This document shows, in pieces, positions 1,765 to 38,484 of a DNA stretch of 53,554 nucleotides. The translations under genes were made by a program, and so were the position numbers. The first letter of the stretch is position 1. Each line of letters begins with the position of its first letter. Under the pieces are notes generated by a model. That model made no database searches. It had not been told where the DNA came from and worked only from the letters and a program-made list of their open reading frames with translations. Origin of the DNA: an uncultured Bacteroidia bacterium (GTDB taxonomy: Bacteria; Bacteroidota; Bacteroidia; Bacteroidales; UBA932); NCBI GenBank assembly GCA_902794615.1, contig CADBHY010000001.1, positions 1 through 53,554 on the forward strand. Direction: 5' to 3'.

Positions 1765-3405
1765 TTATTCTTCAGTCCATTCAGGAACCGATTTTGTCGG
1801 ATCCGGGTTGTTGTAACCTTCAATAGCCGGGTTGCCATTGATTTCGCGGCGAGGGATGGGCCAGTTCCACCAAGGGGCATTTCCGGTCACGTTGTAGCGA
1901 TAACCTTCCTGAACGTTGGTTCCGGCATAACCCACGGTTACGCCTGCGCCCAGACGTTTGAAGTCAAAGAAGACAACACCTTCTCCCCAGAACTCAACTC
2001 TCTTCTGACGGAAAACTTCCTGCTGGAAGCGGGCCGGATCGGAGATGGCGTCACAGCTGTATTCGGGGTTGCGAGTTCTCATGAGTTCGTTGAGGACGGC
2101 TTTGCCTCCACCCAAATTGCCGGACATAGCCAGACCCTCGGCCTCAATCATCATCATCTCTTCCATACGCATGGCGCATACTTCGGAGGCGCCGCCGGCC
2201 TTGTAGTCGCTATAGTTTCCTCCGACCGGACGGAACTTCAGGTTGGAATAAGGCTTGACGACACGGCCACCGGCAGAGGTGAAGACGTCGCGGGACACTT
2301 TGTAAGCATAGTAGTCCGTCCCGTTGGGATCAATCCAGGAGTGTTTGCGCCAGTCGGTATCCGGGATGCTGGCGTAGAGGCTGCTGGAGATACCGCGCTG
2401 TACGGCAGAGCCGTAGGAGGTCCACATTTCCTCGTTGGACATGTGGGCGGTATAGTTGGCCAGGTTGCCCATATTGTCGGCAGAGTAGGCCAGATACCAC
2501 ATCCAGGAATTGGAGTTGGCCGAATAGGTGTTGAAACCGGTCGTCGGGCTTTCCCACTGGTCCTGGGTAAGCGGAGATCCGCCAAAGGTGTCCAGGGCCA
2601 GACGGGCATATTTGGCCGCATTGGCGTAATCTGCCAGGGCCAGGTAAGCACGGGCCTTGAAGCCATATACCACATCGATGGTAGGAAGCATCCGGCCGCT
2701 GACTTTCGCTTCCGCCAAATATCCTTCGGCGGCATCCAGGTCATCAAAGATGAACTTGTAGATAACATCTTTGGTTGCACGAGGGTTATTCTTTGCCTCA
2801 TCCTGGGTCAGTTTTTCATCTACGATAGGGACCGTGAGCCCGGCAATGTCGTTTTCCGGGGCATAGTCGGAGCGGACAGCAGGGTCTGTGGGGGCCTTGT
2901 ATTCATAAATCTGAGCAAGGTTCAGATAGCAGTAGGCACGGATTGCCCTTGCCTGTCCCAGGTAAATCAACTGCTGTTCGTTGGCCGTTTCCGGGTCTAT
3001 GGCGCTGATAACATCGTTGGCGCTCTTGATAAACATATACCAGGTGCGCCAGGCAATGTAAACGCTCTGGTAGACGTCTCCGAAGGGAGATTCATTGGTT
3101 CCCCAGGAAGAGAACCAGTCATAACCGGAGTTTCCGTTCACCACGATATCTCCGGTATTGGAGTCCGTCATGATAAACATGGACGGTATGCCGAAGTCGT
3201 AGTCATTACTGCTGCGCTGGCCAAGGGCGAGGTAGCTTTCCACCATCTGGGCCGGAATCGCGCTTACCATGGCTTCCAGGGCCGTGCTGGATTCACCCAC
3301 CTGCTCTACCGTGGCAATGCTTGTAGGAAATGTTTCCTTGATACAGCCGGAGGCCAGAAGGCCGGCACCAATAAGGATATATACAAAATTTTTGAACTTT
3401 TTCAT
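1765..3405 (-). CDS. susD: RagB/SusD family nutrient-binding lipoprotein
   Basis: Lipobox LLASGC; GQARAIRAYCY, RVEFWGEG and C-terminal WPIPRREI motifs; directly downstream of susC. Confidence 0.95.
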   Translation of the reverse strand: MKKFKNFVYILIGAGLLASGCIKETFPTSIATVEQVGESSTALEAMVSAIPAQMVESYLALGQRSSNDYDFGIPSMFIMTDSNTGDIVVNGNSGYDWFSSWGTNESPFGDVYQSVYIAWRTWYMFIKSANDVISAIDPETANEQQLIYLGQARAIRAYCYLNLAQIYEYKAPTDPAVRSDYAPENDIAGLTVPIVDEKLTQDEAKNNPRATKDVIYKFIFDDLDAAEGYLAEAKVSGRMLPTIDVVYGFKARAYLALADYANAAKYARLALDTFGGSPLTQDQWESPTTGFNTYSANSNSWMWYLAYSADNMGNLANYTAHMSNEEMWTSYGSAVQRGISSSLYASIPDTDWRKHSWIDPNGTDYYAYKVSRDVFTSAGGRVVKPYSNLKFRPVGGNYSDYKAGGASEVCAMRMEEMMMIEAEGLAMSGNLGGGKAVLNELMRTRNPEYSCDAISDPARFQQEVFRQKRVEFWGEGVVFFDFKRLGAGVTVGYAGTNVQEGYRYNVTGNAPWWNWPIPRREINGNPAIEGYNNPDPTKSVPEWTEE

Positions 3406-3423: not shown

Positions 3424-6400
3424 TTAGAATTTGAAAGTGATACCGCCGGACAGCGTTCTGACCGGGAGATAGGAAGCAAAACTGGAACCGCCGGAGAAGG
3501 AGCTGCGCGGGTCGAAGCCTCTGCGGACCGACCAGTAGAAGACATTCTCACAGGCGACATACAGACGGAGACTCTGGATGCCGATCTTGCGGGTCCATTT
3601 AGCCGGGAAGGTGTAGCCGAGATTGACATTCTCGATGTTCAGATAGCTGGCATCGGTCATGAAACGGTCGGAGGTATAGGCGGTGTAAACGTCACCATAT
3701 ACGAAGCGGGGAATGGTGTCGCTGGGCTTGTCGGCCGTCCAGGACTTCAAGACGTCCACGTGGAAGTTGGTACCGGTATTGCCGGCGGTAGGAGGGCTCA
3801 TGAGAGCGGCATAACCGCTGTCATAGGCCTTGCCGCCAATCTGGTAGGAGAAGTTGATGGCAAAGTCCAGGCCCTTCCAGTAGAAGGATGTGCCGAAACC
3901 GCCGTACCACTTGGGAATGGAGTTGTCTCCCAGATAGTAGCTGGCCGAGGAGTAGTTGTTGGTTTTTTCCTCGCTTTCAACGTTGCCATCGGCATCCAGG
4001 TTCTTCTTCCACCACAGGGATTCACCCGTCTGGGGGTCCACCCCTGCGTATTTCTTGAGATAACGGGTATAGAGCGGCAGACCCTGGCCATAGAAGTAGG
4101 TGCCGTTGTTGTAGCCGTCATAGCCGTCCACATTGAGCGTCTTCACATCATCATGCAAGTAAAGAATCTTGTTCATCACCTTGGTGGCGTTTGCGGTTAC
4201 GCTCCAGCGGAGGTCTTTCTTGTTAAAGATATTGGCCGTGAGGGAAAGTTCAACACCCTGGTTGCGCATGTCGCCCACGTTGTCATAGTAGGAGGTGTAT
4301 CCCAGTGAAGGAGCCACCGTGAAGGCAAAGAGCATGTTCGTGGTGGTACGGTTGAAGTATTCGACGGAACCGTCCAAAATGCCTTTGAGGAGAGTGAATT
4401 CTGCACCGACGTTAAAGTTACGGTTGGTTTCCCAGGTAATGTCGCGTTTGCCTTTTCCGTCGAAGGTTACCGCGATATTGCCGTCAGAAGGAACGATATT
4501 ATATGTATCGGTGTACATGTAGCTGCCGATGTTGTCGTTGCCCTGTGAACCGTAGGAAGCTTTGAGTTTGAGCATGTCAACCCAGGATGCAGTAAACCAC
4601 TTTTCCTTGCTGATTATCCAGGCTGCGCCCACAGACCAGAAATTACCCCAGCGGTGATCCGGGTGGAAGCGGGAGGATGCGTCACGACGGAAGGAGGCGC
4701 TGGCGAAAATCTTGTTGTCGTAGTCGTACTGGGCACGGATGAAGTAACCCTCGTTGTTGTATTCCGTGGTATAGGAATTGGCGCTCTGGCTGTCCACGAC
4801 GGCACCGGCCAGTTCCTTGTTGGACTGGGAGAACATATTTCTCTTGCCCGCACCCAGATAAGCATACTTGCTGTCATACCACTCGTGGCCCAGCATGGCG
4901 CTTACCGTATGAAGGCCGAAGGATTGGGTGTAGTTGAGCAGTTGCTGGGTGTTCAGGTTGGTGGAACGGCTATGTGACTTGGAAACGGAACCGCCGGAAG
5001 ATACGAACTGTCCATAGTAAGGATTCAGAACCGTTGTTCCGCGTGTTTCGTCCAGGGCAAAGCTGGTATTGACCGTGAACTTGAAGTATTTTAGGAAGGT
5101 AAAGTCGGCTGCGCCACTGGCGGTGAAGGCGTTGCCTTCGCTGTTGCGGGTATTAAGCTTATTGGCCAGCAGGGCGTTGTTGTTCGGGAGGAAAGGACGG
5201 GTGAGTCCGGCGTTCATTTCTCCGTCACCATAGTCCAAAAGAGCGATGCCGTTCTGGTCGATAATCTGCTTGCCTTCTCCGTCACGGACCAGAAGGGGGT
5301 AGATGGGGGCCATCTGAGCTGTGTAAGCCCAAATGTTACCGGAGTCACCGGTGCCGCCGTCTCCCGAGAGGGAATTGTAATTGAAGTTGGTATAGGAGAC
5401 GTTTCCGGAGAATTTTACCCAAGGTTTTGCCTGATAATCGGCACGGAGGCGAGCTGTGAGACGCTGCATGTCGGAGTTATAGGTGACACCCTGGTTGTTC
5501 AGGTAGCCGACGGAAGCGTAAATGTTGGACTTGTCTCCGCCGCCGGAAACGCTCAGGTTGTATTCCTGGCGCAGGGAATTGCGGAAACCGGCCTTTTCCC
5601 AGTCGTCCGGGAGGAGGAGGAACTCCTGACCCTGATAAGTCACCTTGTTGCCCAAGGTGGCAGCGGGGTTGATTTTTCCGTTTGAGCCGATGAAGTACTG
5701 CCCGTCCGGAACGCTGTAAACCTGGTATCCCAGACCACCGGCGGCTGCAGGACCGGTAATGGTGCCGTTGGCACGGGCCCAAGCCGTTGCGGCAGAAGCT
5801 CCGCCGTTGATATAGGAGTCGTACAAGGCCTTGTAGTGCGTCTCATAATACATGGCAGGATCGGAAATCATGTCGTACTTGAGAAGGGCGTTGGAGTTCA
5901 CACCCACCTTTGCGTCCAGTGTAATGACGGCATCGCGCTCCTTGGAGCGCTTTGTGGTGATGATAATGACACCGTTGGCACCACGGGCACCATACAAGGC
6001 GTTGGAGGCGGCGTCCTTAAGAACGGTCATGGACTCCACGTCGTTCGGGTTGATGTTGTTGATGTCTCCGTCGTAAGGCATGCCGTCCACAACATACAGC
6101 GGGGCGTTTCCTGCTGAAATGGAGCTGAAACCGCGGATTCGGATGGCAGGAGTGCTGCCTGGAGCACCGCCGGTAACAGTGGTTTGCACGCCGGCCACCT
6201 GACCGGTAAGGGCGGACGTGACAGCGCTCACCTGGGAGTGACTCAACTGTTCTGAATTCACAACCTTCGCAGAACCAGTGAAGGATTCCTTGGTGGCAGT
6301 ACCGAAGGCCACAACAATGGTTTCATCCAACATTTGGCTGTCGCTTTCAAGGACGATGTTCAGAGCGGTGCGTCCGTTGACCGGAATCTGCTGCTCCACA

Positions 6401-6636
6401 AAGCCCAGGCTGCTCACGACAAGCGTCCCGTTGCCGGGAACGGAAATTTTGAAACTTCCGTCCATTCCGGTGAGGTCATAGACGGTCGTGGATCCGGCAA
6501 GGATCACGTTGGCGCCTACGATGGGGTCACCTGCTTCGTCTTTCACTGTACCGCTCACAGTGATGTTCTGTGCCACTGCGCTCAGTGCGGAAAGAGTCAA
6601 CGCTACAGCCGTGAAAAAAATCTTGAACTTTTTCAT
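3424..6636 (-). CDS. susC: SusC/RagA family TonB-dependent transporter (SusC1)
   Basis: Signal peptide, N-terminal extension, plug motif LKDAASNALYGARGANGVIIITTK, LTWET-type motif, C-terminal F. Confidence 0.97.
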   Translation of the reverse strand: MKKFKIFFTAVALTLSALSAVAQNITVSGTVKDEAGDPIVGANVILAGSTTVYDLTGMDGSFKISVPGNGTLVVSSLGFVEQQIPVNGRTALNIVLESDSQMLDETIVVAFGTATKESFTGSAKVVNSEQLSHSQVSAVTSALTGQVAGVQTTVTGGAPGSTPAIRIRGFSSISAGNAPLYVVDGMPYDGDINNINPNDVESMTVLKDAASNALYGARGANGVIIITTKRSKERDAVITLDAKVGVNSNALLKYDMISDPAMYYETHYKALYDSYINGGASAATAWARANGTITGPAAAGGLGYQVYSVPDGQYFIGSNGKINPAATLGNKVTYQGQEFLLLPDDWEKAGFRNSLRQEYNLSVSGGGDKSNIYASVGYLNNQGVTYNSDMQRLTARLRADYQAKPWVKFSGNVSYTNFNYNSLSGDGGTGDSGNIWAYTAQMAPIYPLLVRDGEGKQIIDQNGIALLDYGDGEMNAGLTRPFLPNNNALLANKLNTRNSEGNAFTASGAADFTFLKYFKFTVNTSFALDETRGTTVLNPYYGQFVSSGGSVSKSHSRSTNLNTQQLLNYTQSFGLHTVSAMLGHEWYDSKYAYLGAGKRNMFSQSNKELAGAVVDSQSANSYTTEYNNEGYFIRAQYDYDNKIFASASFRRDASSRFHPDHRWGNFWSVGAAWIISKEKWFTASWVDMLKLKASYGSQGNDNIGSYMYTDTYNIVPSDGNIAVTFDGKGKRDITWETNRNFNVGAEFTLLKGILDGSVEYFNRTTTNMLFAFTVAPSLGYTSYYDNVGDMRNQGVELSLTANIFNKKDLRWSVTANATKVMNKILYLHDDVKTLNVDGYDGYNNGTYFYGQGLPLYTRYLKKYAGVDPQTGESLWWKKNLDADGNVESEEKTNNYSSASYYLGDNSIPKWYGGFGTSFYWKGLDFAINFSYQIGGKAYDSGYAALMSPPTAGNTGTNFHVDVLKSWTADKPSDTIPRFVYGDVYTAYTSDRFMTDASYLNIENVNLGYTFPAKWTRKIGIQSLRLYVACENVFYWSVRRGFDPRSSFSGGSSFASYLPVRTLSGGITFKF

Positions 6637-6651
6637 AAGCTAAAGACATTA

Positions 6652-6719
6652 GTTAAACATAAATATTGATACTGATACAATAGGCATTACGGCATCTGTA
6701 CACTACAAAACGTCCGTTT
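6652..6719. repeat. Left inverted repeat: 29-bp block (6652-6680) and candidate invertase crossover site AAACGTCCGTTT (6708-6719)
   Basis: Exact reverse complements of 8882-8910 and 8839-8850. Confidence 0.9.
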
Positions 6720-6739
6720 AAAATTATGGGACTTGCCTG

Positions 6740-6770
6740 CAAAAATGCAAAACAAATTTTTAATTTGCAA
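6740..6770 (-). promoter_or_regulatory. Candidate Bacteroidetes housekeeping promoter facing susC1, inside the putative invertible segment
   Basis: Minus strand TTG-N20-CATTTTTG; one mismatch to the TAnnTTTG -7 consensus. Confidence 0.5.
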
Positions 6771-6978
6771 GCCCCTCAAAGGAGTCTAAAAGTGTAATTT
6801 AACAACGTTTTCTCGGTTTTTAAAAGTTTTTAATGTGTTTTCAGGCACAAGTTAGTTATAATTTTTGAAAGATTTATACAAAGAGCTTACAATTTTTAAT
6901 CGAAAAAAATTTTTCATTTCTATGCTTATTTCTGCACTTCTTTTGCGAATAGGTGAATACCAATAGCTTAAGACTGCT

Positions 6979-7569
6979 TTATTCATCTTTCAAATACCTC
7001 GCAAGGGTGTTGGGATGGATACCCAGTTTTCGGGCCAGCCGGTCGATAGTGACCCCTCGGGAGCGTTGTTCCAGAATATCGGTCTTCTGCATTTCAAACA
7101 GTAGTTTTTGGGCCGATGGTCCCGCTGGCCGTCCCAATTTGATGCCCGCCTGTTTTTTGGCAGCCAGCGCCTCGCGCGTGCGCTGGGAGATAAGGTTGCG
7201 CTCAATCTCGGCCGCCAATGAAAAGGCAAACGCGATGATTTTGGCGTTGAGGCTGTCCGAGAGCTCGAAATTGTCCTTGATGGAATACAGATGGATGTCT
7301 TTCTGGGAACAAGTGTTGAGGATAGACATCACCATCATCATGTTGCGGCCCAGGCGGGAGAGTTCCGTACATACCAGCGCGTCTCCGGGTTTCATCCTGT
7401 GCAGCAGGCGTCCCAGCGTGCGTTTTTCCAGTTTTTGGGTGCCGGAAACCTTTTCCTGTACCCATCGGCCTATTTCCCAGCCTCGGCGGAGGCTCCACTG
7501 CTCAATCTCATAGCGCTGGCCCTCGTAAGATTGCATTTCCGTGCTCACGCGGATGTAGGCGTAATTCAT
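6979..7569 (-). CDS. mpi: Serine site-specific recombinase (DNA invertase), Mpi family
   Basis: Likely start MNYAYIRVST at 7569 (catalytic Ser; AAGGAG upstream); ELSRLGR, AFAFSLAAEIERNLISQRTREAL, LGRP and a C-terminal HTH. Resembles the Bacteroides Mpi family. Confidence 0.88.
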   Translation of the reverse strand: MNYAYIRVSTEMQSYEGQRYEIEQWSLRRGWEIGRWVQEKVSGTQKLEKRTLGRLLHRMKPGDALVCTELSRLGRNMMMVMSILNTCSQKDIHLYSIKDNFELSDSLNAKIIAFAFSLAAEIERNLISQRTREALAAKKQAGIKLGRPAGPSAQKLLFEMQKTDILEQRSRGVTIDRLARKLGIHPNTLARYLKDE

Positions 7570-7695
7570 GGTTCTCCTTTTTAGTGATTGTAATACGATG
7601 ATGTTCCAGGGGCTTAAAATCGTAAGAAACACACAAAAAGCATGTAAAACAACACAACTTTTTTTACGATTGTAGGTTTTTCGGAGTCCTTGTTC

Positions 7696-7703
7696 TATGT
7701 TTG
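7696..7703 (+). promoter_or_regulatory. -7 promoter element of rpn copy 1
   Basis: TATGTTTG matches TAnnTTTG; conserved at 15656-15663 upstream of the paralogue. Confidence 0.6.
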
Positions 7704-7744
7704 TAAGTGTCGGATAACTCCGTCCGATACTAACAATCTTTTTT

Positions 7745-8725
7745 ATGAACCTCAAAATGACTCCTGCGCAGATGCGCAAATTCGTTGCCATCGTCAATGA
7801 GGTGGAACGATACCGGGACCTTACCGAGAAAGAGAAGGAACTTCTTGTCTTATCCATTCTGGACCATCCGTACATGGACCTTCGATGTGACTGGGCCTTC
7901 AAGCACGTGATGAAAAACACGGAGATTTTGAAGATGCTGCTGAACGACTTCCTGCCGGAAGAGATTGAGTCTGTGGAACCACAGTCCAACGAGATTGACA
8001 AGATGCGCCCGGATGACAAGAACGTGATCATGGACGTGCTGTGCCACACGGCGGACGGGAAGGAGTTTATTGTGGAGATGCAGCGGAAGAAGAAAACGAC
8101 GTTCAAGAACCGGATGCTGTACTATGGCGCCTCCATGCTGCATGCCCAATTGAAGCCACGGGAGCCGTATTCGGCCCTGAAACCGGTCTATGTGATTTGC
8201 TTCATGGATTTCAAGATGCACCATGAGACTGACCAGCTGGTGTACCGGTACTCGCTTTGCGAGCAGGCCTCCGGAGAGCGCTACAACGACCTGCTGTCCA
8301 TTTATTTTTGTGAACTGCCCCGCTTGCAAGCAACGGCCATTGAAGGTCTTGACCCAGTACAAAGTTGGTTTTATATTCTCGTAAATATGCGTATCTTTGC
8401 AGGAAAACCGGAAGATATGGGAAAACGTTATGCCGCCGTAGCAGAGGAAGCGCGGATGCCAGGCTTTCCGGAGGAAGAAGAACTGACAAAATATTTCCGC
8501 AATATGATTACCGAAGAAGAAAGACTGGATATAGGTACCGCCTACTATGAAGACGGTTTCAATGATGGTATGGAAAAAGGAAAGGCGGAAGGGCTGGCGG
8601 CGGGCGAAGCTAACGCCATGCGAAAGATGGCCCTGAGGATGCTTAAGGCCGGTGAGGAACCCTCCCGCGTGTCGGAGTTTACCGGATTAAGCCAGGAGGA
8701 AGTTTTGGCCCTTCAGGCGAAGTAA
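7745..8725 (+). CDS. Rpn family recombination-promoting nuclease/putative transposase (PD-(D/E)XK), copy 1
   Basis: DWAFKHVM, MDVLC..IVEMQ, RMLYY, VYVICFMDF, ELPR motifs; GMEKGKAEG repeats; C-terminal TGLS.EEV tail. Confidence 0.9.
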   Translation: MNLKMTPAQMRKFVAIVNEVERYRDLTEKEKELLVLSILDHPYMDLRCDWAFKHVMKNTEILKMLLNDFLPEEIESVEPQSNEIDKMRPDDKNVIMDVLCHTADGKEFIVEMQRKKKTTFKNRMLYYGASMLHAQLKPREPYSALKPVYVICFMDFKMHHETDQLVYRYSLCEQASGERYNDLLSIYFCELPRLQATAIEGLDPVQSWFYILVNMRIFAGKPEDMGKRYAAVAEEARMPGFPEEEELTKYFRNMITEEERLDIGTAYYEDGFNDGMEKGKAEGLAAGEANAMRKMALRMLKAGEEPSRVSEFTGLSQEEVLALQAK

Positions 8726-8748
8726 TAAACTCAATAATATCAGAGTCG

Positions 8749-8780
8749 AAGACGGAGTACGAAAGTGCTTCGTCTTTTTT
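8749..8780 (+). terminator. Intrinsic terminator after rpn copy 1
   Basis: aagacggagtac-gaaa-gtgcttcgtctt hairpin followed by a T tract. Confidence 0.8.
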
Positions 8781-8838
8781 GTGCCTTTCAAATCATAAGT
8801 TCAGCCATGGTTTTATGTCTGTTTTTGGATTCACAAAA

Positions 8839-8910
8839 AAACGGACGTTTATAAGTGTATTGGATACCTATTACAGACTATTTGTATCAGTATCAATATT
8901 TATGTTTAAC
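8839..8910. repeat. Right inverted repeat: AAACGGACGTTT (8839-8850) and 29-bp block (8882-8910)
   Basis: Exact reverse complements of 6708-6719 and 6652-6680. Confidence 0.9.
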
Positions 8911-8925
8911 CAAATTGTTCAGCTT

Positions 8926-11900
8926 ATGAAACAAGCGAAAGTTTTGTTTAGCTCCTTGTTCTTGTTCGCGAGCGTAGTCCTGTCTGCACAGAACATTACC
9001 GTTCGCGGTACGGTCAAGGACGCAACCACCGGTGATGCCATCCCTTATGCCGGCGTTCAGGTTAAGGGAACGAGCACCGGAGCTATCTCTGACATGGACG
9101 GTGTCTATGTTGTTTCTGTTCCCTCTCAAGGAACGCTCGTTATTTCTTCCGTAGGATACACAACGCAGGAAATACCTGTGAATGGACGCACCTCCATTAA
9201 TGTAACCTTGGAACAAGACAATGAGTCTCTGGAAGGTACTGTAGTTGTTGCCTTCGGAACAAAACGCAAGCAAGACCTTGTTGGTTCCGTTTCCAGCGTC
9301 AAGTCCGAGATTCTCCAGAACAACCAGTCGGCTTCAGTTACCAGCGCCTTGGAAGGTGCGGTTTCCGGCCTTCAGGTAATTACCTCTACCGGTCAGCCGG
9401 GAAGCGATGCCAGCATTTATGTCCGTGGTATCGGCTCCCTGAGCGCGAGCAATGCCGCCCTTGTGGTCGTAGATGGTGTTCCGTACAACGGAAGCATCTC
9501 GAATATCAATCCGCAGGATATTGAATCTATTTCCGTATCCAAAGACGCCGTCTCCAACTCCCTGTACGGTTCCCGTGCAGCTGGCGGCGTGGTTATGATT
9601 ACCACCAAAAGCGGAGCCAAAACCAAGGCGAACATCCAGTTCAGCGCCAATGCCGGTGTCTTGAGCCGCGCATACAAGGACTATAGCATGGTGACCGATC
9701 CCGCCGAATACTACCGCCTCACCTGGTACGGTATCCGCAATACGGAATTCGTCGCCGGTGCTACTGCTGAGGAAGCGGCAGAAACCGCCTCGAAAAACCT
9801 TCTGAAGGAATTGGGTAACTATAACTCCTTCATCATTCCCGACGGAGAGTATCTGGTGGATGTCAATGGCAACCTGAACAGCAAGGCAAAAGTACGTTAT
9901 AACGATTCCTTTGCCGACAATATGTTCAAGACCGCCGTGCGTCAAGAGTACAACATCTCCGCCTCCGGCAGCAATGACAAAGTAGATTACTACATGTCTA
10001 TCGGCTATCTCGATAACAAGTCCTACATTGTGGGTTCCAACTACAACCGCTTGTCTGCCCGTACCAATTTGACGGCGAAACTTACCTCCTGGCTCCGTGC
10101 GGGAATGAACCTCGCCTATTCCAAGACGCAGAGCAACGGTATGCAGGAAAGCACGACGGCAGCCTCCAACCCCTTCAGCGTAGCACGCAGCTGGGCTCCC
10201 ATCTACCCCGTCCATGCCTATGATGCCGAGGGTAACATGGTGAAGGACGAGAAAGGCAACCCCGTATGGGATGCCGGTACCGGCCAGACTGCAGGAACGT
10301 CCAAACGTCCTACTGCTACGAACCAGAACGTCATCTGCAACCTGACGGAAGACATTCGTCGCACCACCCGTCACAATGTAACCACCCGTGCATTTGTTGA
10401 AGCTAAATTCCTGAAACACTTCACGGCTTTGGTTAACTACAGTTATGACTTCCGTAATGGACAGGGCCTTACCTATTATACTCCCACCATCGGTGACGGC
10501 CAGTCCTTTAAGGGCCGTGGTACGCACAATGCCACCACTTCTACCGTGTCCAATTTGCAGGAAACCCTTTCCTATGAGAATATTTTTGGGGATAACCATA
10601 ATTTCTCCGCCAAGATAGGCCATGAGTATTACCAGTACAGGTATCGCTACCTGGAAGCCCAAAAGACTAACTTCTTTGATCCGGCCAACCCGGAACTGGC
10701 TAATGGTGGTCAGCAGCAATATAGCACCAGCGGTACAGACGCCCTGAATATTGAAGGCTTTTTCGGAATGGTTGACTATAACTACGCTTCCAGATATTAT
10801 TTCTCTGCCGCTTTTCGTAGGGACGGAACTTCCCGTTTCAATAAGAAGTGGGGTAATTTCTGGTCTGTCGGCGCTGCCTACCGTATCTCTGCAGAGCCAT
10901 TCATGGCCAGCACCAAATCCTGGCTTGACGATTTGAAAATCCGTGCCTCCTATGGTACTCAGGGCAACCAGGAAGTGGGAAACTACTACCCCGTCCATGA
11001 TCAGTACGAAGTTGGTTGGGACGGATCCAACCTGTACACCTCCTTGTCTTATTACGGTAATCCTGATCTTACTTGGGAAAAACAGAATACCTTTGATGTC
11101 GGTTTGGACTTCAGCTTCCTGGGTCGCATCAGGGGAAATATGGACTTTTTCATCCGCAAAACAGATGATATGCTGTTCCAGCGTCCGCTTGCCTATTCTA
11201 CCGCAGCCCGCCCCTATAACTGGGAAAACCTGGGCGCCATGAGAACAAACGGTATTGAGTTTGAAATCAGCGGTGATATTATCAAGAACCGCGATTTACG
11301 TTGGACCGTCACCCTCTTGGGCTCCCACTATGGTAACAAGATTCTCCGCCTGCCCGAAGAAAACAGGGAGGATGGTATCACCTCTGGCACCTATAAACTT
11401 ATGGAAGGCCGTGACCGGTACGAATACTATACTTATATGTATGCTGGAATGGATGAGAATGGAAATGCTCAATGGTATAAGGATGAGGTAGATGACAAGG
11501 GTAATAAGACCGGAAACAAAGTAGCAACCACCAAATACAGCGAAGCCACAAAGTATTATCTTGGCAAGACCGCCTTGGCAAAACTGAACGGCGGTATTAA
11601 CACTCAGTTGTATTGGAAGGGCTTGGACTTCAGCATCCAGACCTCTTACCAGATTGGTGGCTGGGCCTACGACTCCGAGTATCTGAGCGGTATGAGCGTC
11701 TCTTACTATGTGGGTCACAACGCAGACATGTGGAATACCTACGATCCCATCAAGAAGACCGGCTCCATCCCGGTATGGAATGCCAACAACACGTCCAACT
11801 CCTACAGTCAGACCTCCGATGCACATCTGGTTGATGCCTCTTATCTGAGCATCCGCAATATCACCATCGGATATACTCTGCCCAAGCACATCACCCGTAA

Positions 11901-12066
11901 ATTCTACGTGGAAGGTCTTCGCTTTTACGTTATGGCCGACAACGTAGCCCTCTTCTCCAAGCGCCAGGGATTCGATCCCAGGGTTTCTTTCACCGGCTCT
12001 ACCGGCAGCTTCCGCGGCTATGCCCCTATGCGCACGGTTTCCGGCGGTATAACCGTTACGTTCTAA
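8926..12066 (+). CDS. susC: SusC/RagA family TonB-dependent transporter (SusC2)
   Basis: Start at MKQAKVLF (signal peptide); KDAVSNSLYGSRAAGGVVMITTK plug motif, LTWEK, C-terminal F. Confidence 0.96.
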   Translation: MKQAKVLFSSLFLFASVVLSAQNITVRGTVKDATTGDAIPYAGVQVKGTSTGAISDMDGVYVVSVPSQGTLVISSVGYTTQEIPVNGRTSINVTLEQDNESLEGTVVVAFGTKRKQDLVGSVSSVKSEILQNNQSASVTSALEGAVSGLQVITSTGQPGSDASIYVRGIGSLSASNAALVVVDGVPYNGSISNINPQDIESISVSKDAVSNSLYGSRAAGGVVMITTKSGAKTKANIQFSANAGVLSRAYKDYSMVTDPAEYYRLTWYGIRNTEFVAGATAEEAAETASKNLLKELGNYNSFIIPDGEYLVDVNGNLNSKAKVRYNDSFADNMFKTAVRQEYNISASGSNDKVDYYMSIGYLDNKSYIVGSNYNRLSARTNLTAKLTSWLRAGMNLAYSKTQSNGMQESTTAASNPFSVARSWAPIYPVHAYDAEGNMVKDEKGNPVWDAGTGQTAGTSKRPTATNQNVICNLTEDIRRTTRHNVTTRAFVEAKFLKHFTALVNYSYDFRNGQGLTYYTPTIGDGQSFKGRGTHNATTSTVSNLQETLSYENIFGDNHNFSAKIGHEYYQYRYRYLEAQKTNFFDPANPELANGGQQQYSTSGTDALNIEGFFGMVDYNYASRYYFSAAFRRDGTSRFNKKWGNFWSVGAAYRISAEPFMASTKSWLDDLKIRASYGTQGNQEVGNYYPVHDQYEVGWDGSNLYTSLSYYGNPDLTWEKQNTFDVGLDFSFLGRIRGNMDFFIRKTDDMLFQRPLAYSTAARPYNWENLGAMRTNGIEFEISGDIIKNRDLRWTVTLLGSHYGNKILRLPEENREDGITSGTYKLMEGRDRYEYYTYMYAGMDENGNAQWYKDEVDDKGNKTGNKVATTKYSEATKYYLGKTALAKLNGGINTQLYWKGLDFSIQTSYQIGGWAYDSEYLSGMSVSYYVGHNADMWNTYDPIKKTGSIPVWNANNTSNSYSQTSDAHLVDASYLSIRNITIGYTLPKHITRKFYVEGLRFYVMADNVALFSKRQGFDPRVSFTGSTGSFRGYAPMRTVSGGITVTF

Positions 12067-12086: not shown

Positions 12087-13652
12087 ATGAAAAAGAATAT
12101 TGCCATCTTATTCTCCATTGCTCTTCTGGGAGGTACGATAAGCTCTTGCATGAAGGATGCAGAACCCACAGGCCTGATTACCCAGGAGCATCTCAATACT
12201 GTATTGGAGGAGCATCCCGAAAAATTCGATGCCCTTGTACAAGGTATCTACACGGATATTCAATCGTTCGGCGACCCCGGAATATCCCATAACTACTTTG
12301 GACAGATGGGATTCAATTACTTGACCTCCCTGATGGGTAATGATATGATTATGACCGGCCGATATGGCATGAGTATCTATCACTATCTGCTGGACTACTG
12401 GCAGCAGGACTATAACGCAACCCTGACCCGCTGGAGAGAGTACTACCGCCATATCGCAAACGCAAACAACATCATTCGCCAGGCCCCTGCCGATGCAACA
12501 GATCCGGTTACGCTACAATATCGCGCCATTGCTCTGGGTATTCGGGCTTATGCTTACCTTCAGCTTTCCTACCTATATCAGTATTCCTACTATGTAGGTG
12601 CCGATGACACAGTTTGGGGTAAAGGTGCAAAGTATGATCACTCCAAAGATCTGCTTGTTCCCATCGTGGACGAGAAAACAACAGAAGATCAGCCGCGAAA
12701 GACCGTAGAAGATGTTTTCAACTTCCTTATCAAAGACTTCGAAGAATCCTATGCCATCTTTGAAAAGATAGGAGCGGTCCGCACATCTTCACCCACCGAC
12801 ATTGATGGTTGTGTAGTGGCCAATTACCTGGCCCGCGCCTATATGATCAAACATGATTGGGATAACGGTGCAAAATACGCCAAGGTTGTCATGGATAACT
12901 TTGATATTCTCTCTACGGAAGCAGATATTCTCCAGGGATTCAGCAATATCAATCTGGATGACGTGGTGTTTGGTTGTGACATCACTTCTGACAACTCGGG
13001 TATCTACAGGTCCTGGTTCTCCATGATGGACTATTTTGGCGACGGTTATGCCGGCATCGGTGTCTGGCGTGCCGCTTTTGGTCCGCTGGTAGATAGAATT
13101 GCCGATGACGACGTGCGTCGTGAATGGTTCCTGGATAAACGGAATCCGCTTACCATGCAGATAGCTGCTGTATTGTATCAGTCCATCAAATTCATTGGCG
13201 CAGGACGAAGTGCCGTCTTTAATTCCGGTTTTGACGGAACCGGCTGGGAGTTGGGCGACTACATCTATCTCCGCTCCGAAGAAGCCTATTTTATGTATGC
13301 TGAATGCCTTGCTCATCAAGATAATCTGACTGATGCCGTAGCGCTTCTTGAAGATATTATGTCCACCCGTCAGCCCAGTTACACTTGCAGTGCTACTACC
13401 AAAGAAGACTTCTTGGAAGAACTTATTTTCCAGAAGAGGGTTGAGTTCTGGGGAGAAGGAATGGAATTTTTGGACAACCGCCGTCTGAATATTCCTGTTG
13501 ACCGTACCGATGCTACCTGGACCAAGGAAAGGAATAATCACCTTGCTGCGGCTAAATTCAAGAAGGAACAGGAAACTGAGGAATTCCTCTACCAGTTGCC
13601 TATCTCTGAAATTGAAAACAACAAGAATATCAACGAGGAGGATCAAAACTAA
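12087..13652 (+). CDS. susD: RagB/SusD family lipoprotein
   Basis: Lipobox ISSC; IRAYAYLQL, RVEFWGEG, LPISEI..N motifs. Confidence 0.95.
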   Translation: MKKNIAILFSIALLGGTISSCMKDAEPTGLITQEHLNTVLEEHPEKFDALVQGIYTDIQSFGDPGISHNYFGQMGFNYLTSLMGNDMIMTGRYGMSIYHYLLDYWQQDYNATLTRWREYYRHIANANNIIRQAPADATDPVTLQYRAIALGIRAYAYLQLSYLYQYSYYVGADDTVWGKGAKYDHSKDLLVPIVDEKTTEDQPRKTVEDVFNFLIKDFEESYAIFEKIGAVRTSSPTDIDGCVVANYLARAYMIKHDWDNGAKYAKVVMDNFDILSTEADILQGFSNINLDDVVFGCDITSDNSGIYRSWFSMMDYFGDGYAGIGVWRAAFGPLVDRIADDDVRREWFLDKRNPLTMQIAAVLYQSIKFIGAGRSAVFNSGFDGTGWELGDYIYLRSEEAYFMYAECLAHQDNLTDAVALLEDIMSTRQPSYTCSATTKEDFLEELIFQKRVEFWGEGMEFLDNRRLNIPVDRTDATWTKERNNHLAAAKFKKEQETEEFLYQLPISEIENNKNINEEDQN

Positions 13653-13724: not shown

Positions 13725-15206
13725 ATGAAAAGAATCTTTTGGATTACCTTTCTGTGTTTCTTGGCACTGTCGGCCTGCAAGAAGGAAGACCAGCCCTATT
13801 CCACGGAGGGAGAGACTCCTGTAGTAGAGCAAGAAACCGAGCAGCAGAAAACCTGGAGGTATGCCAACATCTTTGCCATGAATACAATGAATCTCTACTA
13901 TCTGTGGCAGAAGGAGATTGCTTCCTCGTTGGAAACATGGAAGACCTCGGATAATCCCGTGGAGAAAGTCCAGAAAGTCCGTTACAAGGACGACCGTTGG
14001 ACAGAGATGATAGAGAACTTCTCCGACTTTCAGGGCAGTGTGTCGGGAACAGAAAAAACCTATGGATTTGACTTCATTCTGTATCCCTATGACAATCCGC
14101 TCACCACTCTTTGCGGAGTGGTTAAATACACCTATGAAGATTCTCCGGCCAGGAAAGCGGGTCTCAAACGGGGAGATGTCATCATGAAAGTGAATGGCAA
14201 GAGCATTCCCTATCCCAATTATACCAGTATAGTCTTCAATGAGTTGCTGGGAGGAGACAAACTTACGGTGGAACTCATGGACGGAAGGACCCTTACCATG
14301 GATTCGGTAGAGATGTATGAGAATCCGGTACTTCTTTCAAAGGTGTTCACGGCGGAAAGCAAGAAAATAGGCTATCTGCATTTCACCAGCTTCACGCTTG
14401 ATGCGTGCAGCGACCTAATAAAGGTGTTCAAGGAATTCAAGGAAGAGGGCGTATCGGAACTCATCCTGGACCTTCGGTACAACGGGGGCGGCTATGTGAT
14501 TACCGAAGAAGTGATGGCGTCGCTCATTGCTCCTGAAGAAGAGGTGCTGGCCGGAAGCGTTTTGTCAACCATGGTCTGTAACGAAGGATTGAGTGAGTAT
14601 TTCAAAAAACAAGGCACAGATACGAACACTTATTTCAAAACGAATTTCTCCTTTACCAGCAATGGGCAGAAACAGGAGCTGTCCACAATGGGAGCCAATC
14701 CCGGAATCCAGAAACTGTACGTAATCATGACATCCTCTACGGCATCGGCATCGGAGGCCATCGTTTGCGATTTAAGCCCGTATATGCCTGTCTCTTTGAT
14801 CGGCGAACAAACACACGGGAAATTCTGCACCGGACTCATGATGGATGCAGTAGAGTTCTTCGAGGATTATGCCGACCAGCTGGGAACCACTGTTTCCGAG
14901 CAGGGGAAAAAATACACCGAAAACTGGGGCTTATACATCATGTACTCCCGCTTTGCCGATAAAAACGGTGTAACCCTATGTATGCCGGACGGCCTGCACC
15001 CGGACTATGAGGCCGAGGATGACCCGCTGGACGGCTTCCAGCTGGGAGACCCCTCGGAAACCATGCTGGCCCGCGCCCTGGCGCTTTGCGGATACCAGGC
15101 CGATACGAAAGCCACTGCCGCGCCGGCCGTCAGCCTGGAGCGCACCCCTATTCCTTTCAAAGACAAAGCCTATCGCATCCTGCTTCCGGAACAGCTGCCC
15201 AAATAG
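13725..15206 (+). CDS. S41 family peptidase lipoprotein with PDZ domain, copy 1
   Basis: Lipobox LSAC; YYLW, SPARKAGLKRGD (PDZ), LDLRYNGGG, TASASE, GEQTHGK. Confidence 0.93.
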   Translation: MKRIFWITFLCFLALSACKKEDQPYSTEGETPVVEQETEQQKTWRYANIFAMNTMNLYYLWQKEIASSLETWKTSDNPVEKVQKVRYKDDRWTEMIENFSDFQGSVSGTEKTYGFDFILYPYDNPLTTLCGVVKYTYEDSPARKAGLKRGDVIMKVNGKSIPYPNYTSIVFNELLGGDKLTVELMDGRTLTMDSVEMYENPVLLSKVFTAESKKIGYLHFTSFTLDACSDLIKVFKEFKEEGVSELILDLRYNGGGYVITEEVMASLIAPEEEVLAGSVLSTMVCNEGLSEYFKKQGTDTNTYFKTNFSFTSNGQKQELSTMGANPGIQKLYVIMTSSTASASEAIVCDLSPYMPVSLIGEQTHGKFCTGLMMDAVEFFEDYADQLGTTVSEQGKKYTENWGLYIMYSRFADKNGVTLCMPDGLHPDYEAEDDPLDGFQLGDPSETMLARALALCGYQADTKATAAPAVSLERTPIPFKDKAYRILLPEQLPK

Positions 15207-15558: not shown

Positions 15559-15702
15559 CATAGGAAGCCTGCCTTCAAATCGAAAGAAACACACAAAAAG
15601 CATCTAAAACAACACAACTTTTTTTACGATTATAGGTTTTTTGAAGTCCATGTTCTATGTTTGCTGCAAGGACAACTCCGTCCGGCATAAACTATCGGCC
15701 TT

Positions 15703-19353: not shown

Positions 19354-22300
19354 TCAATCAAAGAAACGCATGGTGCGGAGCATCTCGAAAATCATGTCCA
19401 CGTACTTGGACGAGGTGTGGTCCCAGCTGAAGCCCAGCCGATAGAGCACCTGCATGGTAAAGTGGACGGAGGGCTGGTTCATCACCGTCTCGGCGTGGGA
19501 AGGAGACTGGGCATAGGCCACCAGGCTGCTCAGCTGCTGCGCCTTCCGGGAATCGGCCATCAGCGCCTGCATGCGGGCCATAAATTCCGGGAATTCGACG
19601 TATTCCAGCTTCCTGCCGTCAATCAGACTCAGGCGGGAGAGGATGTCTTCCATGGGGATGAGGTGGTTGTTGGAGACGTTGAAGACGCAGTTTTCGCGCG
19701 GGGTCCGGCACAGCAGCATCATGGCGCGGGCGCTCTCGTCAATGGGCGAGAACTCCATCTTGGCGTCCAAGAGCGAGTACGGGCAGGCGCCCAGCAGCTT
19801 GTAGGACCGGATGCGCCCCATGGCGGCATTGGCGTTCAGGTTCACCTGGAACTCGCCGTCCGAAGCACGCGGCGACAAGTTGCCGGCCCGCAGAATCTTG
19901 GCGTTCAAGGCCCCTGCAGCCATTTTTTCCAGGATGTAACGCTCGGCCAGGAACTTGGAATGGACGTACTGGTTGTCCGTTTGCTGGCCAAAGTACAGCT
20001 GCTGTTCCGACAGCTGCTTCGGGTGGCTGCCCATGCTCATGCCGGCCACGCTTTCCGTCGATACGTGCACCAGGCGGGCGCCCGTGGCTTCGCAGAAGGC
20101 GCAGAGGTTCTTGACCCCGCCGTAATTGATGTCCTCGATATCCGTTCCCTTGGAGAAGTGCTTCACGTTGGCGGCGCAGTTCACCACCAGCGTCCAGTGC
20201 GTTCCGGAGGTCTTGAGCGACTCAAAGACTTCCGTCTGGGTAATGTCTCCGTTTATCAGGCGGATGCGCTTTCCGATGAGGGGCCGATAGTCCTTCTCGA
20301 AATAATAGACCAGCATCTCACGCAGGCGCCGGTCCGTGCCGATGGTACCCTTGGGCCTGAGCAGGCACCAGATGACGGTGTCTTCGGGAGTGTTTTCCAC
20401 CAGTTCCCGCAGCATGTGGATGCCCAGGAAGCCGGTTGCCCCCGTAAGGAGAATCTGGCCCTCGACGCTCTGCATCCGGCCTCCGCCCAGCGCCTCCAGG
20501 GTATTGCCGGCAAGGAGGGTGTCGATGGCCGAATAGTCGTAGGAACTCACGTCGCCGTCTTCCTTGGGTGCCTGTACCCCCCCGCTCAGGAAAGCGGCCA
20601 GCTCACGGGCGGTGGGATGGGAGAAAACGTCGGCATAGGCAAACTGGAGGCCTTGTTTTTCGGCCTGCACCAAGACGTTGGTCACCATGAGCGAAGAGCC
20701 TCCCAGGTCGAAGAAATTGTCCGTCGCACCCACTTTTTCCATGCTCAGCACCTCGGCGAAAATCTCGCAGAGCTTCTTTTCCATCTCTCCCTCCGGGGCC
20801 ACGTAGTCCTGGCTGCTGTCGGGGGTGGGTTTGGGCAGGGCCTTGCGGTCCACCTTCTGGTTTACGTTCAGCGGAATCTTGTCCAGCTGCACAAAGGCGG
20901 CGGGCACCATATACGGGGGCTTCCGTTCCTTGATGAAGGCGGCGGCGGCCCGGCTGTCGAATTTTCCCTCGGCCACCACATAGGCGGCGATGAACTTGCC
21001 GCCGGAGGGGCTGTCGAAGGCCTGCACCGTCACGTCTTTCACGCCCGGGCACTCGCGCAGCACTTCCTCCACCTCCTTGAGCTCGATGCGGAAGCCGCGG
21101 ATTTTCACCTGGCCGTCCTGTCGGCCCACAAATTCAATATTTCCGTCAGGACGGAAGCGGACTATGTCTCCGGAGCGATAGGCCCGCATTCGGGCCGAAA
21201 ACGGGTTTTCTATGAAGGTTTCGGCGGTTTTATCCGGACGGTTCAGGTAACCGCGGCCCACACCGGCTCCGGCGATGAGCAGTTCCCCAGCCGCACCCAC
21301 GGGCAGGCGGCGGAAATCTCCGTCCGTCACATACATGAAACAGTTGTCCAGCGCATGGCCGATGGGAATGTTGGCCTCCTTCTTCCGGACGTCGAAGATG
21401 GTGGAGAAAATGGTGCATTCCGTGGGGCCGTAGCCGTTGTGGAAACCGTAGGAAGGCGGATCCATGGACACCAGCTTCTCTCCGCCCACGGAGAGGTGCT
21501 TCAGCGAGGGGTTCCGGGGGAAGTTCTTGGCATACATCACGCCCACCTGGGTGGTCATGAAGCTGTGGGTGATGCCTTTCCGGCTTATAAAGGCATCCAG
21601 CCGGCCCATGTCGTGGCGGGTTTCCTCCGGGATGATGCAAACGCAGGCTCCCGTGGTGAGGGCGGGATACAGGTCCATCATGCAGGCGTCAAAGCCGTAG
21701 CTGGCATAGGCCGCCACCTTGCTGCCGCTTTCCAGTCCGTAGTACCGGCGGTACCAGGCGCAGAAGTTCACCAGGTTCCGGTGCTCCAGCATCACGCCCT
21801 TGGGCACGCCGGTGGAGCCGGAGGTATAAAGCAGGATGAAGAGGTTTTCGGGCTTGGGGCCTTCCGGCACGGGGCCTTCGGGCAGCGTTTCCAGCTCTTC
21901 CGTGGTGAGCACGGGGCCCTTGTAGTCTTTGAGCAGCGGCAGCAGTTCCTTGTCGGCCACAAGGAGGCCCGCCGCGGCGTCGGCAATCATGAACTGCAGC
22001 CTTTCCTCCGGGTAGGAAGGGTCCAGCGGTTGGTAGGCGCATCCGGCCTTGAGGATGCCCAGGGAGGCCAGGGCCATCCATTCTCCCCGGCCGATAAGCA
22101 CGGACACCACGTCCTCGGCCCCGAGGCCCCTTGCGGCGATGGCGGCGGCAATGCGGTCGGTCAGGGCATCGGCCCGGGCATAGCTGTAGGTGATGTCCTG
22201 GAAGTTCACGGCCGGGGCGTCGGGCGTCATCCGAGCCTGCGTGCGGAAGAGGCTCACGATGGTTTGCGAGCCGTCCACCGGGAGGCTGTAGTGATTGAAG

Positions 22301-25300
22301 CCGTCCAGCTCCTTCAGGCGCTCTCCGTCCACAAAGGGAACCTCTTTCAGGAGCTTGTGCTCCAGCAGGCCGCGCACCACGCATTCCATGGCGTCGGCAA
22401 AGGCTTGCATGAGGGCGGGGCTGTACTTGCTGTCGTCATAGCCCAGGACGATGGACTCCTTGCCCTCGCTGCCATCGATATAGATGCTCAGGGGGAACTT
22501 GGGGGCGCCGGCCTCCAGGTTCTCGCCCGTGACGCTCTGTCCGTTCACGCGGTAATCGGCCAGGACGCCCACCTGGTAGGCCAGCATCACCTGCGGCTGG
22601 AAGCCGAAGTCGGCGGCTATTTTGGCGAAGGGGTATTCCTGGTGCTCCAGGGTGGCCTGAAAGTCTTGGTCGCACTGCTTCAGGAAGGCCTCGGTGTCCT
22701 CAATGGAGCAGTCTCCCTTCAGGGCCAGGGTGTTTACGAACATGCCGAAACTGTCGGCCGTCCGGAGGTTGCCGCGACCGTTGCTGATGGTACAGATATA
22801 AACCTTCTTGCTGGCGCTGTAGGCGCTCAGGCTAAGGTAGGCGGCGCCCAGATAGAAGCTGGCGGGAGAGATGCCCAGCGTCTTGCACAGGGGGTGGATA
22901 TTGGCGCCCACTTCCCTGCGCAGGAAGACCTCGCGGCCGCCCTGTCCGCCGGTCTCCAGGTCCGGAATAACGGCCGACGGGCTTTCCAGGCCGGCGAGCT
23001 GCCCGGCAAAGAATTCCCGGGCCCGGGCATAGGCCTCGCCGCTTTCGGCGGCCTGCTGCTCGGCAGAGTATTGGAAATAGGTATAGCTTTCCGGGGCGAT
23101 GTCCTTTCCTTCCAGCGCGGCGCAGATTTCCTGGATGAAGATGTCGTAGCTGCGGCCGTCGAAGACCAGGTGGTGGAAGTCGCTCAGAAGGTAGGTATGG
23201 CCGCTTTCGGAAAGGATTTCCACCTTGCCGAGGGGGCCTTTCCCCAGGTCGAAGGGGCAGGTGAAGCCTTCCCGTGCGGCCTGCAGGCTGCCTTCCCGCA
23301 CGGTGACGGGAACGGGAATGTCCGTGGGAACCTGGCAAATCTGTCCGTCCCGCTGCTCAAAGCGGCTCTGCAACGCCGGGTGGGCGGCCAGCACCTTTTC
23401 CACGGCCTGTTTGAGCGCCCCGGCCGACACTTCCCCGGGGAAGGTCCACAGCATGGGAATGTTGTAGATGGTCTCGTGGGGGGCTTTCATGCAGTCCAGG
23501 TACACGCCGGCCTGCTGGTTGGTGAGGGCCTGGGGGTGGAGCGCTTCTTCGCCCTGCGCGGAGCCGGAAGGGCCGCCCCCTTCCATGAGCTTTTTAAGCA
23601 CTTCGTTTTCAATGCTTTGCAAGGTTGCGGTTTTGGCAAAGCTGTTCATATCGGCCTGAACGCCGTAGCGCTTGAACAGCTCCGTTGCCAGGCGTAGGCC
23701 GCTCAGGGAGCTTAGCCCGTACAGCATCAGGGGTTCCGTGAGCCCGGCTCCTTCGATGCCGGTGGTTTCCTTCAGGAGGGCCGCCAGTTCCTGTTCCAGG
23801 ATGTTCAGCGGGGCGGCTTCCTGCCGGTCGGCCTTTTGCACCTGCGGCTTGGGCAGGGCCTTGCGGTCTACTTTCTGGTTTACGTTGAGGGGGATGACGT
23901 CTATCTGCATGGTAACGGCGGGTACCATGTAGGGCGGTTTGCGTTCCAGGATAAAGGCGTTAAGCGCCTTGATGTCAATTTGTTTATCGCTTACCACATA
24001 GGCGGCCATGAACTTGCCGCCGCCCTCCTGGTCGAAGGCCTGCACGGTGACGTCGCGGATGTCCGGGAATTCCCGGATGACGGCTTCCACTTCCTTGAGT
24101 TCAATGCGGAATCCGCGGATTTTCACCTGGGCGTCCTTCCGGCCGATAAATTCGATGTCTCCGTCTTCGCGGTAGCGCACGATGTCTCCGGTGCGGTACA
24201 GGCGCCTGTAAGCGGGGTTTTTGTCAAAGGGGTTGTCCAGGAAGGCCTCGGCCGTTTTTTCGGGCTTGCCCAGGTAACCGTCGCCCACCTGCTGTCCGGC
24301 GGTCCAGAGTTCGCCGGCGGCACCGGGAGGCAGCAGGGCACCGCCTTTGGACACCACATAGGTGCGGATGCCCGGCAGGGCCTGGCCGATAGGGATATTC
24401 TCTTCGGACACCTTCACTTCTTTGCTCAGCGTATAGCACAGGCTTTCGCTGGGGCCGTAGCAGTTGAACAGGCGGTAGTCGGGAAGCTGGATCCGGGGCA
24501 TTTTCTCGCCGCCGGTAAAGAGCACTTCCAGGCCTTTGCACTGCGGATAGGCGCTTACGAACTGCACGGCCACCTGTGTGGTCATCAGCACATGCGTGAT
24601 GCCGTTTTCTTCGTAATATTGGTGCAGGGCGGAGAGGTCCAGGCGGATTTCTTCGGGGACGATGTAAAGGCTGGCGCCGCTGACGCAGGCGTCGGCAAAG
24701 TCTCCCACAAAGGCGTCAAAGCCGAAGCTGGCATAGGCCGCCAGGCGGGAGCGGGAGCTGATGCCCAGGTTCACCGCACAGCGCCGGGCATACAGGGACA
24801 GGCTTCTGTGCGGCAGCATGCAGCCCTTGGGCTGTCCCGTGGTGCCGCTGGTGTACAGAAGCGTGGCCAGCATGTCCATGCCGGGCTTTGCCTTCGGGCT
24901 GCCTTCGGGGAGGGCGGCAATCTCTTCCGTTTTCAGGACGGGCCCCTGGAAGCCTTCGACCAGATGTCCGTCGGTGATAAGGAGGGCCGCATCGGCATCC
25001 TGAATCATGTATTGCAGACGTTCCGCGGGGTAGGAAGGGTCCAGCGGCTGGTAGGCGCAACCGGCTTTCAATACGCCAAGGGGCGCCAGGAACATGTATT
25101 CGTTGCGTCCCAGGATAATGGAAACGACTTTTCCGTTGCCGATATGCTGCTCGATATAGGCGGCCAGCTTGTCGCTCAGCAGGTCTGCCTCCCGGTAGGT
25201 ATAGCTGTGCTCTTTGTACCTTACAGCCGTCTGGGAGGGCGTTTTCCGGGCGTTTTCACGGAACAGGTCAAGCAGGTTTTTCTCCGGGTCAAGCCGGTCT

Positions 25301-26586: not shown

Positions 26587-26607
26587 GTCTTTTTCTTTAG
26601 GTCTGTA

Positions 26608-38459: not shown

Positions 38460-38484
38460 GATTCTTCACTTCGTTCAGAATGAC
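38460..38484. repeat. REP-like element, single copy
   Basis: GATTCTTCACTTCGTTCAGAATGAC, 23/25 identical to 33619-33643. Confidence 0.7.

Follow-up and report, generated by a model that had tools for sequence, protein, structure and literature searches.

We analysed a 53,554-nucleotide stretch of DNA (hereafter the window; GenBank contig CADBHY010000001.1, contig C1 of its assembly) from an uncultured bacterium of the Bacteroidales, whose assembly amounts to 1,910,602 bases and is 89.8% complete. At issue is a small serine recombinase gene, here called the invertase, that lies between two divergent operons for SusC/SusD transporters. An earlier note, made from the sequence alone, had pointed out this arrangement, and matches to TIGR04056, to the SusD families of Pfam and to PF00239 bear it out. 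With gene families assigned by Pfam and NCBIfam/TIGR profile searches, the features of the locus are as follows.

1765-3405, minus strand: susD1 (PF14322/PF07980)
3424-6636, minus strand: susC1 (TIGR04056, 788 bits), which faces the promoter in the window orientation and is predicted to be ON
6637-6707, minus strand: fixed leader of susC1, with no promoter, 81% similar to the leader and gene start of susC2
6708-6719, plus strand: crossover site 1, AAACG-TC-CGTTT; full site about 6699-6728; joints at 6707/6708/6720
6740-6770, minus strand: predicted promoter directed outward, TTG-N20-CATTTTTG, lying 19 nt inside site 1
6979-7569, minus strand: small serine recombinase of 196 amino acids, Mpi-like (PF00239), with RVS and SRLGR motifs intact
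7574-8838, plus strand: optional passenger module, made up of a repeated upstream element, an Rpn/PD-(D/E)XK gene and a terminator-like hairpin
8839-8850, minus strand: crossover site 2, AAACG-GA-CGTTT, the identical 12-mer inverted; full site about 8830-8859
8851-8925, plus strand: fixed leader of susC2, with no promoter
8926-12066, plus strand: susC2 (TIGR04056, 728 bits), predicted to be OFF in the window orientation
12087-13652, plus strand: susD2 (SusD family, Pfam)
13725-15206, downstream of susD2: S41 peptidase gene (Pfam)

The two crossover sites enclose a segment of 2,143 bp (6708-8850). They had been described as inverted 12-bp sites with an asymmetric centre, some 70 to 90 bp upstream of each susC. 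The sites are exact in the sequence, the extended inverted repeat (18 of 21 positions, 6699-6719 / 8839-8859) was reproduced, and the measured distances are 71 nt to the susC1 start (6636) and 75 nt to the susC2 start (8926). In the whole assembly, AAACGTCCGTTT is found at 6708-6719 and, inverted, at 8839-8850 only, and an exact pattern search confined the looser AAACG-NN-CGTTT to the same two places of this 89.8%-complete assembly. According to the site profile of relatives, the consensus is an imperfect palindrome of about 30 bp, CACTA-NN-AAACG-core-CGTTT, with a weaker GTG arm inside. The two leaders share a 67-nt, 81% inverted repeat and fold no better than shuffles (z 0.28 and -0.79).

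The stretch is present in public sequencing runs, mostly of bovine and sheep gut metagenomes, and 6 DNA runs from 6 studies, out of 14 DNA runs listed, were examined as contigs. Among the contigs listed, joints of the inverted form were seen in three of these six runs, exactly at the 12-mer. Run X5 contains both reciprocal opposite-strand joints (6707/8850 and 6720/8839), the 12 letters fitting either side; X6 contains opposite-strand joints 6707/8850 and 6708/8851; and X13 contains joint 6707/8850, with a short side of just 30 letters. The outer flank stays with its own gene at the joints. The window orientation is found in X2, a possible source of the window, where it spans both sites, and in a variant contig of X7 across site 2; X2, X5, X6 and X13 represent four studies. 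Contigs of X7 and X8 start with the first letter of site 1 (6708), as expected if the graph branches there. The orientation was also compared across relatives, as the earlier note had asked, the named ones being Bacteroidales metagenome-assembled genomes. Four pairs of contigs with shared flanks stand in opposite orientation and break at the sites: L074/L098 (94-96%), L119/L064 (98% in the flank), L057/L081 (87-89%) and L078/L079 (99.6%). The segment inverts in nature at these two sites, as had been proposed for it, and we hold this to be practically certain.

The 2-bp core at the centre of the site varies between loci, and seven types were encountered (GT, GG, TC, AG, AC, GA and TT), none of them palindromic. 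Within a locus, the two cores were equal in all 21 genome loci retained, against a mean of 4.8 and a maximum of 14 in 100,000 shuffles that treat related loci as if independent; left out of this count were the duplicate L062, the weak matched pair L075, and the unmatched L037, L051, L054, L070 and L073. Cores were also equal in 24 of 24 metagenome loci, many of them duplicates of genome loci, in which the sites were picked by motif score alone, blind to the core; these were drawn from 30 two-sided loci, six of which had no candidate on one side. Core matching within loci is a requirement of serine recombinases, because strand exchange needs matched 2-bp overhangs. The natural core series may also constitute a set of mutually non-recombining invertase sites.

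The layout with one promoter and two divergent susCD operons is conserved across relatives. A susC gene adjoins the invertase in 26 of the 27 genome loci with a whole invertase, and two divergent susC genes surround it in 17 of the 19 that have long flanks on both sides. The exceptions are L051, without a good right site and without a divergent susC, and L060, which has both sites and a TT core and from which the left susC is absent. Among 62 metagenome loci, susC was two-sided in 30, one-sided in 24, and absent from 7 (short contigs), the last locus being of another arrangement. The segment is about 0.8-2.9 kb long in relatives, and the minimal cassette consists of a site, 50-100 nt, the invertase, about 200 nt with the promoter, and a site. 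Across lineages the invertases are 56-98% identical and keep the same position, polarity and promoter.

That promoter was examined by its motifs, a sigma-70 promoter scan being unused because Bacteroidota promoters lie outside its coverage. The Bacteroides -7 consensus is TAnnTTTG (PMC4747536; here and below, statements on published work refer to the accessible parts of the papers cited). Of 25 loci, 23 have a -7-like box 15-29 nt inward of the invertase-distal site, and in all 23 a TTG stands 19-20 nt upstream of the box, which equals the spacing of this genome's promoters. On the inner side of the site, TTTGC is present in 23 of 25 loci at the invertase-distal end, versus 1 of 28 at the other end. 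A strict bipartite promoter is found on 21 of 25 near sides versus 0 of 26 far sides before the start codon; one far-side match is within the susC2 coding sequence, and 8 of the 26 far sides contain a lone -7-like match. In the window, the TTG-N20 promoter-like box that had been seen facing susC1 is present at 6770-6740 on the minus strand, and the susC2 side, which had been reported to lack TAnnTTTG, has no NAnnTTTG on the plus strand at 8730-8926. Two RNA runs gave contigs that leave the segment and the joints uncovered: X15, with low-depth contigs on susC1 and susC2, and X16, with contigs on susC1 and its leader to 6700 only. They are uninformative on exclusivity because the contigs come from mixed populations.

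The invertase matches PF00239 with 120 bits, and its RVS (residues 7-9) and SRLGR motifs align with a solved DNA invertase. Helix-turn-helix matches at residues 160-194 are weak and below cut-off; relatives carry helix-turn-helix families. The best NCBIfam match is NF009949 (Mpi), with 252 bits, under the cut-off of 272. None of the 29 susC-linked copies examined has lost the catalytic motifs. In an unrooted tree of 39 rows, which omitted five very long rows, two short contigs labelled 'other' and the metagenome rows, these 29 split from 10 paralogues at 100/100, the two groups differing also in similarity to the query. Judged by sequence, then, the enzyme belongs to a susC-linked branch that is sister to Mpi and lies outside the Mpi equivalog; of the earlier assignment to an Mpi-family invertase, the serine recombinase stands and the family does not. 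A lineage of enzymes that is dedicated to this segment and has stayed intact there speaks for the internal enzyme as the catalyst.

We consider it likely that the internal invertase flips the segment and that a single predicted promoter would drive either susCD1 or susCD2. As can be expected from serine-recombinase chemistry, a tetramer would bind the two sites of about 30 bp and cut around the 2-bp core; with asymmetric, matched cores placed head-to-head, inversion would be the sole outcome. Transcription would start just inside the promoter-side site, cross that site and enter whichever fixed leader is attached to it. The operon facing away would have no promoter and, in this strain, would also be shielded by the Rpn terminator. 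The likely purpose, on which we can only speculate, would be bet-hedging between two surface transporters, in their role as phage receptors, in their substrate range, or both.

Several observations weigh against this reading. A second serine recombinase, 44% identical to the invertase, is encoded on C92; it scores 294 bits, over the Mpi cut-off, and its neighbouring look-alike sites share the inner arms. In addition, the internal gene has no conserved promoter (a bipartite match in 1 of 21 loci), and Bacteroides fragilis Mpi acts on 13 distant regions (PMC4747536). The switch could then be real and be flipped mainly in trans by the C92 recombinase, an Mpi equivalog, with the internal invertase redundant or weakly expressed. 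We find this quite unlikely, since the susC-linked copies form their own branch with catalytic motifs intact in 29 of 29, since the C92 type has its own local invertible segment of about 178 bp with a different core (L046), and since any such invertase-type gene is present in 21 of the 36 same-genus genomes searched. The promoter itself is also irregular: the -7 box of the window begins with C, and the 23 boxes start with A (10 loci), C (6) or T (7), whereas T comes first in 187 of 218 AT-rich bipartite matches genome-wide. As the usual first T is absent from 16 of 23 boxes, the predicted outward promoter may be weak, perhaps deliberately so, or need an activator. In the lineage of L034, L125 and L120, moreover, the far gene seems to be provided with a second promoter of its own, and L034 and L125 possess a third site with a second promoter-like box. 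Together with the lone -7-like matches on far sides, such features would suit an inversion that merely tunes levels, both susCD operons keeping transcription that is their own or regulator-dependent. This is unlikely in view of the strict bipartite promoter, which is common on near sides and was found on none of the 26 far sides ahead of the start codon, and of the TTG spacer, which is fixed at 19-20 nt in every box.

Other points concern the joints and the cores. Both orientations in a single run were not found among the contigs listed for the 6 DNA runs, and the starts of X7 and X8 contigs at 6708 fit other flanking alleles equally well. The five unmatched-core pairs named above are each without a divergent susC on the second side; if the duplicate alone is dropped, cores match in 22 of 27 genome loci, in a pairing that favoured identical 12-mers. 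One could suppose, from the missing coexistence within a run and from the long inverted repeat of the leaders, that the orientations are fixed strain differences, produced by rare inversion or by homologous recombination between leaders, with no active phase variation. We judge this very unlikely: the joints fall at the 12-mer and leave the outer flanks with their genes, cores are matched within loci and change between lineages, and flips recur in four other lineages. Extremely unlikely is a transposon-type resolvase belonging to a mobile element inserted between the susC genes. PF00239 is indeed common to resolvases, and the passenger module is gained and lost, but the two sites have opposite orientation and equal, asymmetric cores, invertases of such varied identity keep a common position, polarity and promoter across many lineages, no contig without the whole segment was found among the joints listed, and the inversion joints themselves disfavour it.

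For a segment that would carry its own invertase and turn one promoter between two susCD operons, the closest working analogies are Hin and the sap locus of Campylobacter fetus. In Salmonella, Hin and one outward promoter lie inside their own H segment, bounded by hix sites, and decide which of two surface proteins is made: fljBA is transcribed in one orientation, and a repressor mediates the selection of the other flagellin. At the sap locus, an invertible promoter sits between oppositely oriented surface-protein genes, and recombination is RecA-dependent, occurring between 5' ends of long homology; the segment is not known to encode a dedicated invertase. The window resembles Hin, a serine invertase (PMC11868660), in having such an enzyme within its own invertible segment with an outward promoter, and differs in that the promoter would drive either adjacent operon directly. 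With sap it shares one promoter that would be turned between opposed surface-protein genes; unlike sap, it has its own invertase and short sites.

Within the Bacteroidales, B. fragilis Mpi (FinA) acts in trans on its 13 regions, of which seven are capsule promoters switched ON/OFF (PMC4747536), and its published repeat is ARACGTTCGTN (PMC8375218). The enzyme class is the same and the promoter likewise lies just inside one repeat. The resemblance of the sites to the Mpi core, pointed out in the earlier note, holds for 9 of the 10 specified bases of the published repeat and fails at one base, in the variable core. The window gene differs by lying inside a segment of the 0.8-2.9-kb type with a target operon at both ends, and by its separate branch. 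In the shufflons of B. fragilis Tsr0667 and Bacteroides thetaiotaomicron BT1041, alternative SusC/SusD transporters are also phase-varied by DNA inversion; there, tyrosine recombinases swap susC 5' ends within the coding sequence, whereas the serine enzyme of the window would move a promoter and leave the genes whole, with the crossover 71-75 nt upstream of the start codons. Promoter inversion before susCD is described in Phocaeicola sartorii (PMC13648699), a survey of gut invertons places neighbouring invertases generally outside promoter control (PMC11892184), and Mpi-family genes are enriched beside predicted inversions, with SusC among the targets (PMC9881135). The supplement text of the latter has no match to Mpi or SusC, and its data tables may list such loci. 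The layout is not described in the accessible parts of PMC11868660, PMC11602134, PMC3090145, PMC4232325, 10.1101/2024.11.17.624012 or 10.1101/2025.06.06.658271. No description of a self-encoded serine-invertase cassette between divergent susCD operons was found in the open literature, to which our survey was confined, subscription papers being outside its scope. The kind of system, invertible-promoter phase variation, is known; the combination of a self-encoded enzyme with a target on both sides appears to be new. Published Bacteroidales invertible promoters are, in the accessible texts, ON/OFF switches with the enzyme outside the segment, and the window switch would be self-contained with two targets. 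It predicts that genetically identical cells of this uncultured lineage of ruminant gut metagenomes differ in which of two quite dissimilar outer-membrane transporters (identity mostly 25-43%) they display. Two questions become accessible to metagenomics: a possible selection of the orientation by phage or diet, and a possible role of the transporters as phage receptors.

SusC1 and SusC2 of the window are 39% identical. When the two SusCs of a locus were compared in 20 rows, one of them a duplicate, identity was 25-43% in 18 and 81-86% in the other two. Loci with near-identical invertases can carry different SusC pairs: despite invertases 97-98% identical to that of the window, L078-L080 have flanking SusCs that reach no more than 58% identity to the window's, and the distant L036 and L037 hold SusC matches to the window of 79% and 69%. 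Shared cargo blocks end at the sites. We tentatively suggest, as a doubtful possibility, a cassette family with exchangeable susCD cargoes, in which sites and leaders would act as docking points for allele swaps; homologous recombination in the conserved leaders explains cargo exchange equally well. If cargo exchange were true, the population would have a large pool of receptors at its disposal while any single cell displays one of two; a supply of integron type would feed a switch of Hin type. At L088 (3716-4460), the left site abuts the middle of susD, and susC and the susD start are missing, through aberrant recombination or mis-assembly.

The nearest solved relatives of the two SusCs are 8aa4 first and RagA (6sli) second (344 versus 327 and 331 versus 321 bits), and a match to RagB was obtained for SusD1 only (E 8e-4). 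No glycoside hydrolase was found among the 29 open reading frames of the window scanned with Pfam. The evidence on SusC substrates leans towards peptides because of the 8aa4 and RagA relatives, the S41 peptidases after susCD2 and the lack of a glycoside hydrolase; a RagAB-like or peptide identity is only a lead.

The Rpn gene of the passenger module (7745-8725, plus strand) passes TIGR01784. A hairpin follows at about 8748-8780, with a folding energy of -19.5 kcal/mol (z -4.2) for 8748-8777; it went uncalled in the terminator scan, so that the susC2-side terminator proposed earlier keeps its strong hairpin and lacks a scan call. L079 and L080, whose invertases are 97-98% identical to that of the window, have a 78-nt spacer in place of the 1.27-kb Rpn module, which is present in L078, and joints skipping the module were seen in X6, X8 and X13 (sides of 24-34). 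Rpn is an optional passenger, because it is absent from L079 and L080 and skipped by metagenome joints; its carriage on the segment, as first noted, holds for the window and L078. The Rpn family is reported as an anti-phage toxin-antitoxin (10.1101/2023.05.02.539157). The element at 7613-7703 is repeated at 7 other places of the assembly, including before a second Rpn gene (15573-15663), and the assembly has four Rpn-like genes.

The paralogues of the invertase neighbour fimbrial genes, htpG, transposases and other TonB genes, and two of them stand beside short classic invertible segments. In one case, a second Mpi-type gene (L049:6044-6779, which is C92; L046:6530-6707) is followed by a segment of about 178 bp with TT/AA-core sites, before a small open reading frame. 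C92 ends inside its short segment, and an apparent site at its end, considered as the partner site, is actually a palindrome at the contig break. In the other (L039:6890-7055), a 166-bp segment with matched sites lies next to an Mpi-type gene, ahead of DUF3575/DUF5119/Mfa1 fimbrial genes, which is, by its gene order, the classic external-invertase layout. At L045:5175-7549, an invertase of the other branch is flanked by two divergent outer-membrane genes of TonB type; the cores are matched (AC), and the passenger is a nucleotidyltransferase. The promoter there may be split, with the -33 inside and TAnnTTTGC just outside each site, and the locus is possibly a second, independent either/or cassette.

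Some minor features of the cassettes may be added. The third site and second promoter-like box (L125:4164-4445 and L034:7022-7303) lie about 270 nt outside the invertase-proximal site and could form a nested three-site switch; an equally long gap is present in L120, where the third site was not picked up. An antisense promoter in the fixed leader, considered as a driver of the invertase, is unsupported (bipartite match in 1 of 21 loci, lone -7 in 6 of 21). ATGTTTAAC occurs at 6652-6660 (minus strand) and 8902-8910 (plus strand), 15-24 nt before both susC starts, and before susC1 a stop follows at once. The motif recurs in the leaders of relatives (16 of 26 and 16 of 25), has 5 occurrences in the genome, and is possibly a translation signal.

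Elsewhere in the window, the minus-strand open reading frame at 1-1752, after susD1, is lipoprotein-like and has no Pfam match; near the contig end it contains a tandem duplication of about 20 amino acids (GQYTIVAVALDEKKAA twice), which may be an assembly artefact. A two-module protein of 2,423 amino acids resembling nonribosomal peptide synthetases, with a terminal NAD-binding reductase domain, is encoded at 19354-26625 (minus strand) and adjoins a SpoIIE/HATPase gene. The cluster at 37740-46047 comprises genes for an ABC ATPase, DUF4857, a TonB plug, DUF6850 and DUF4876/BACON.

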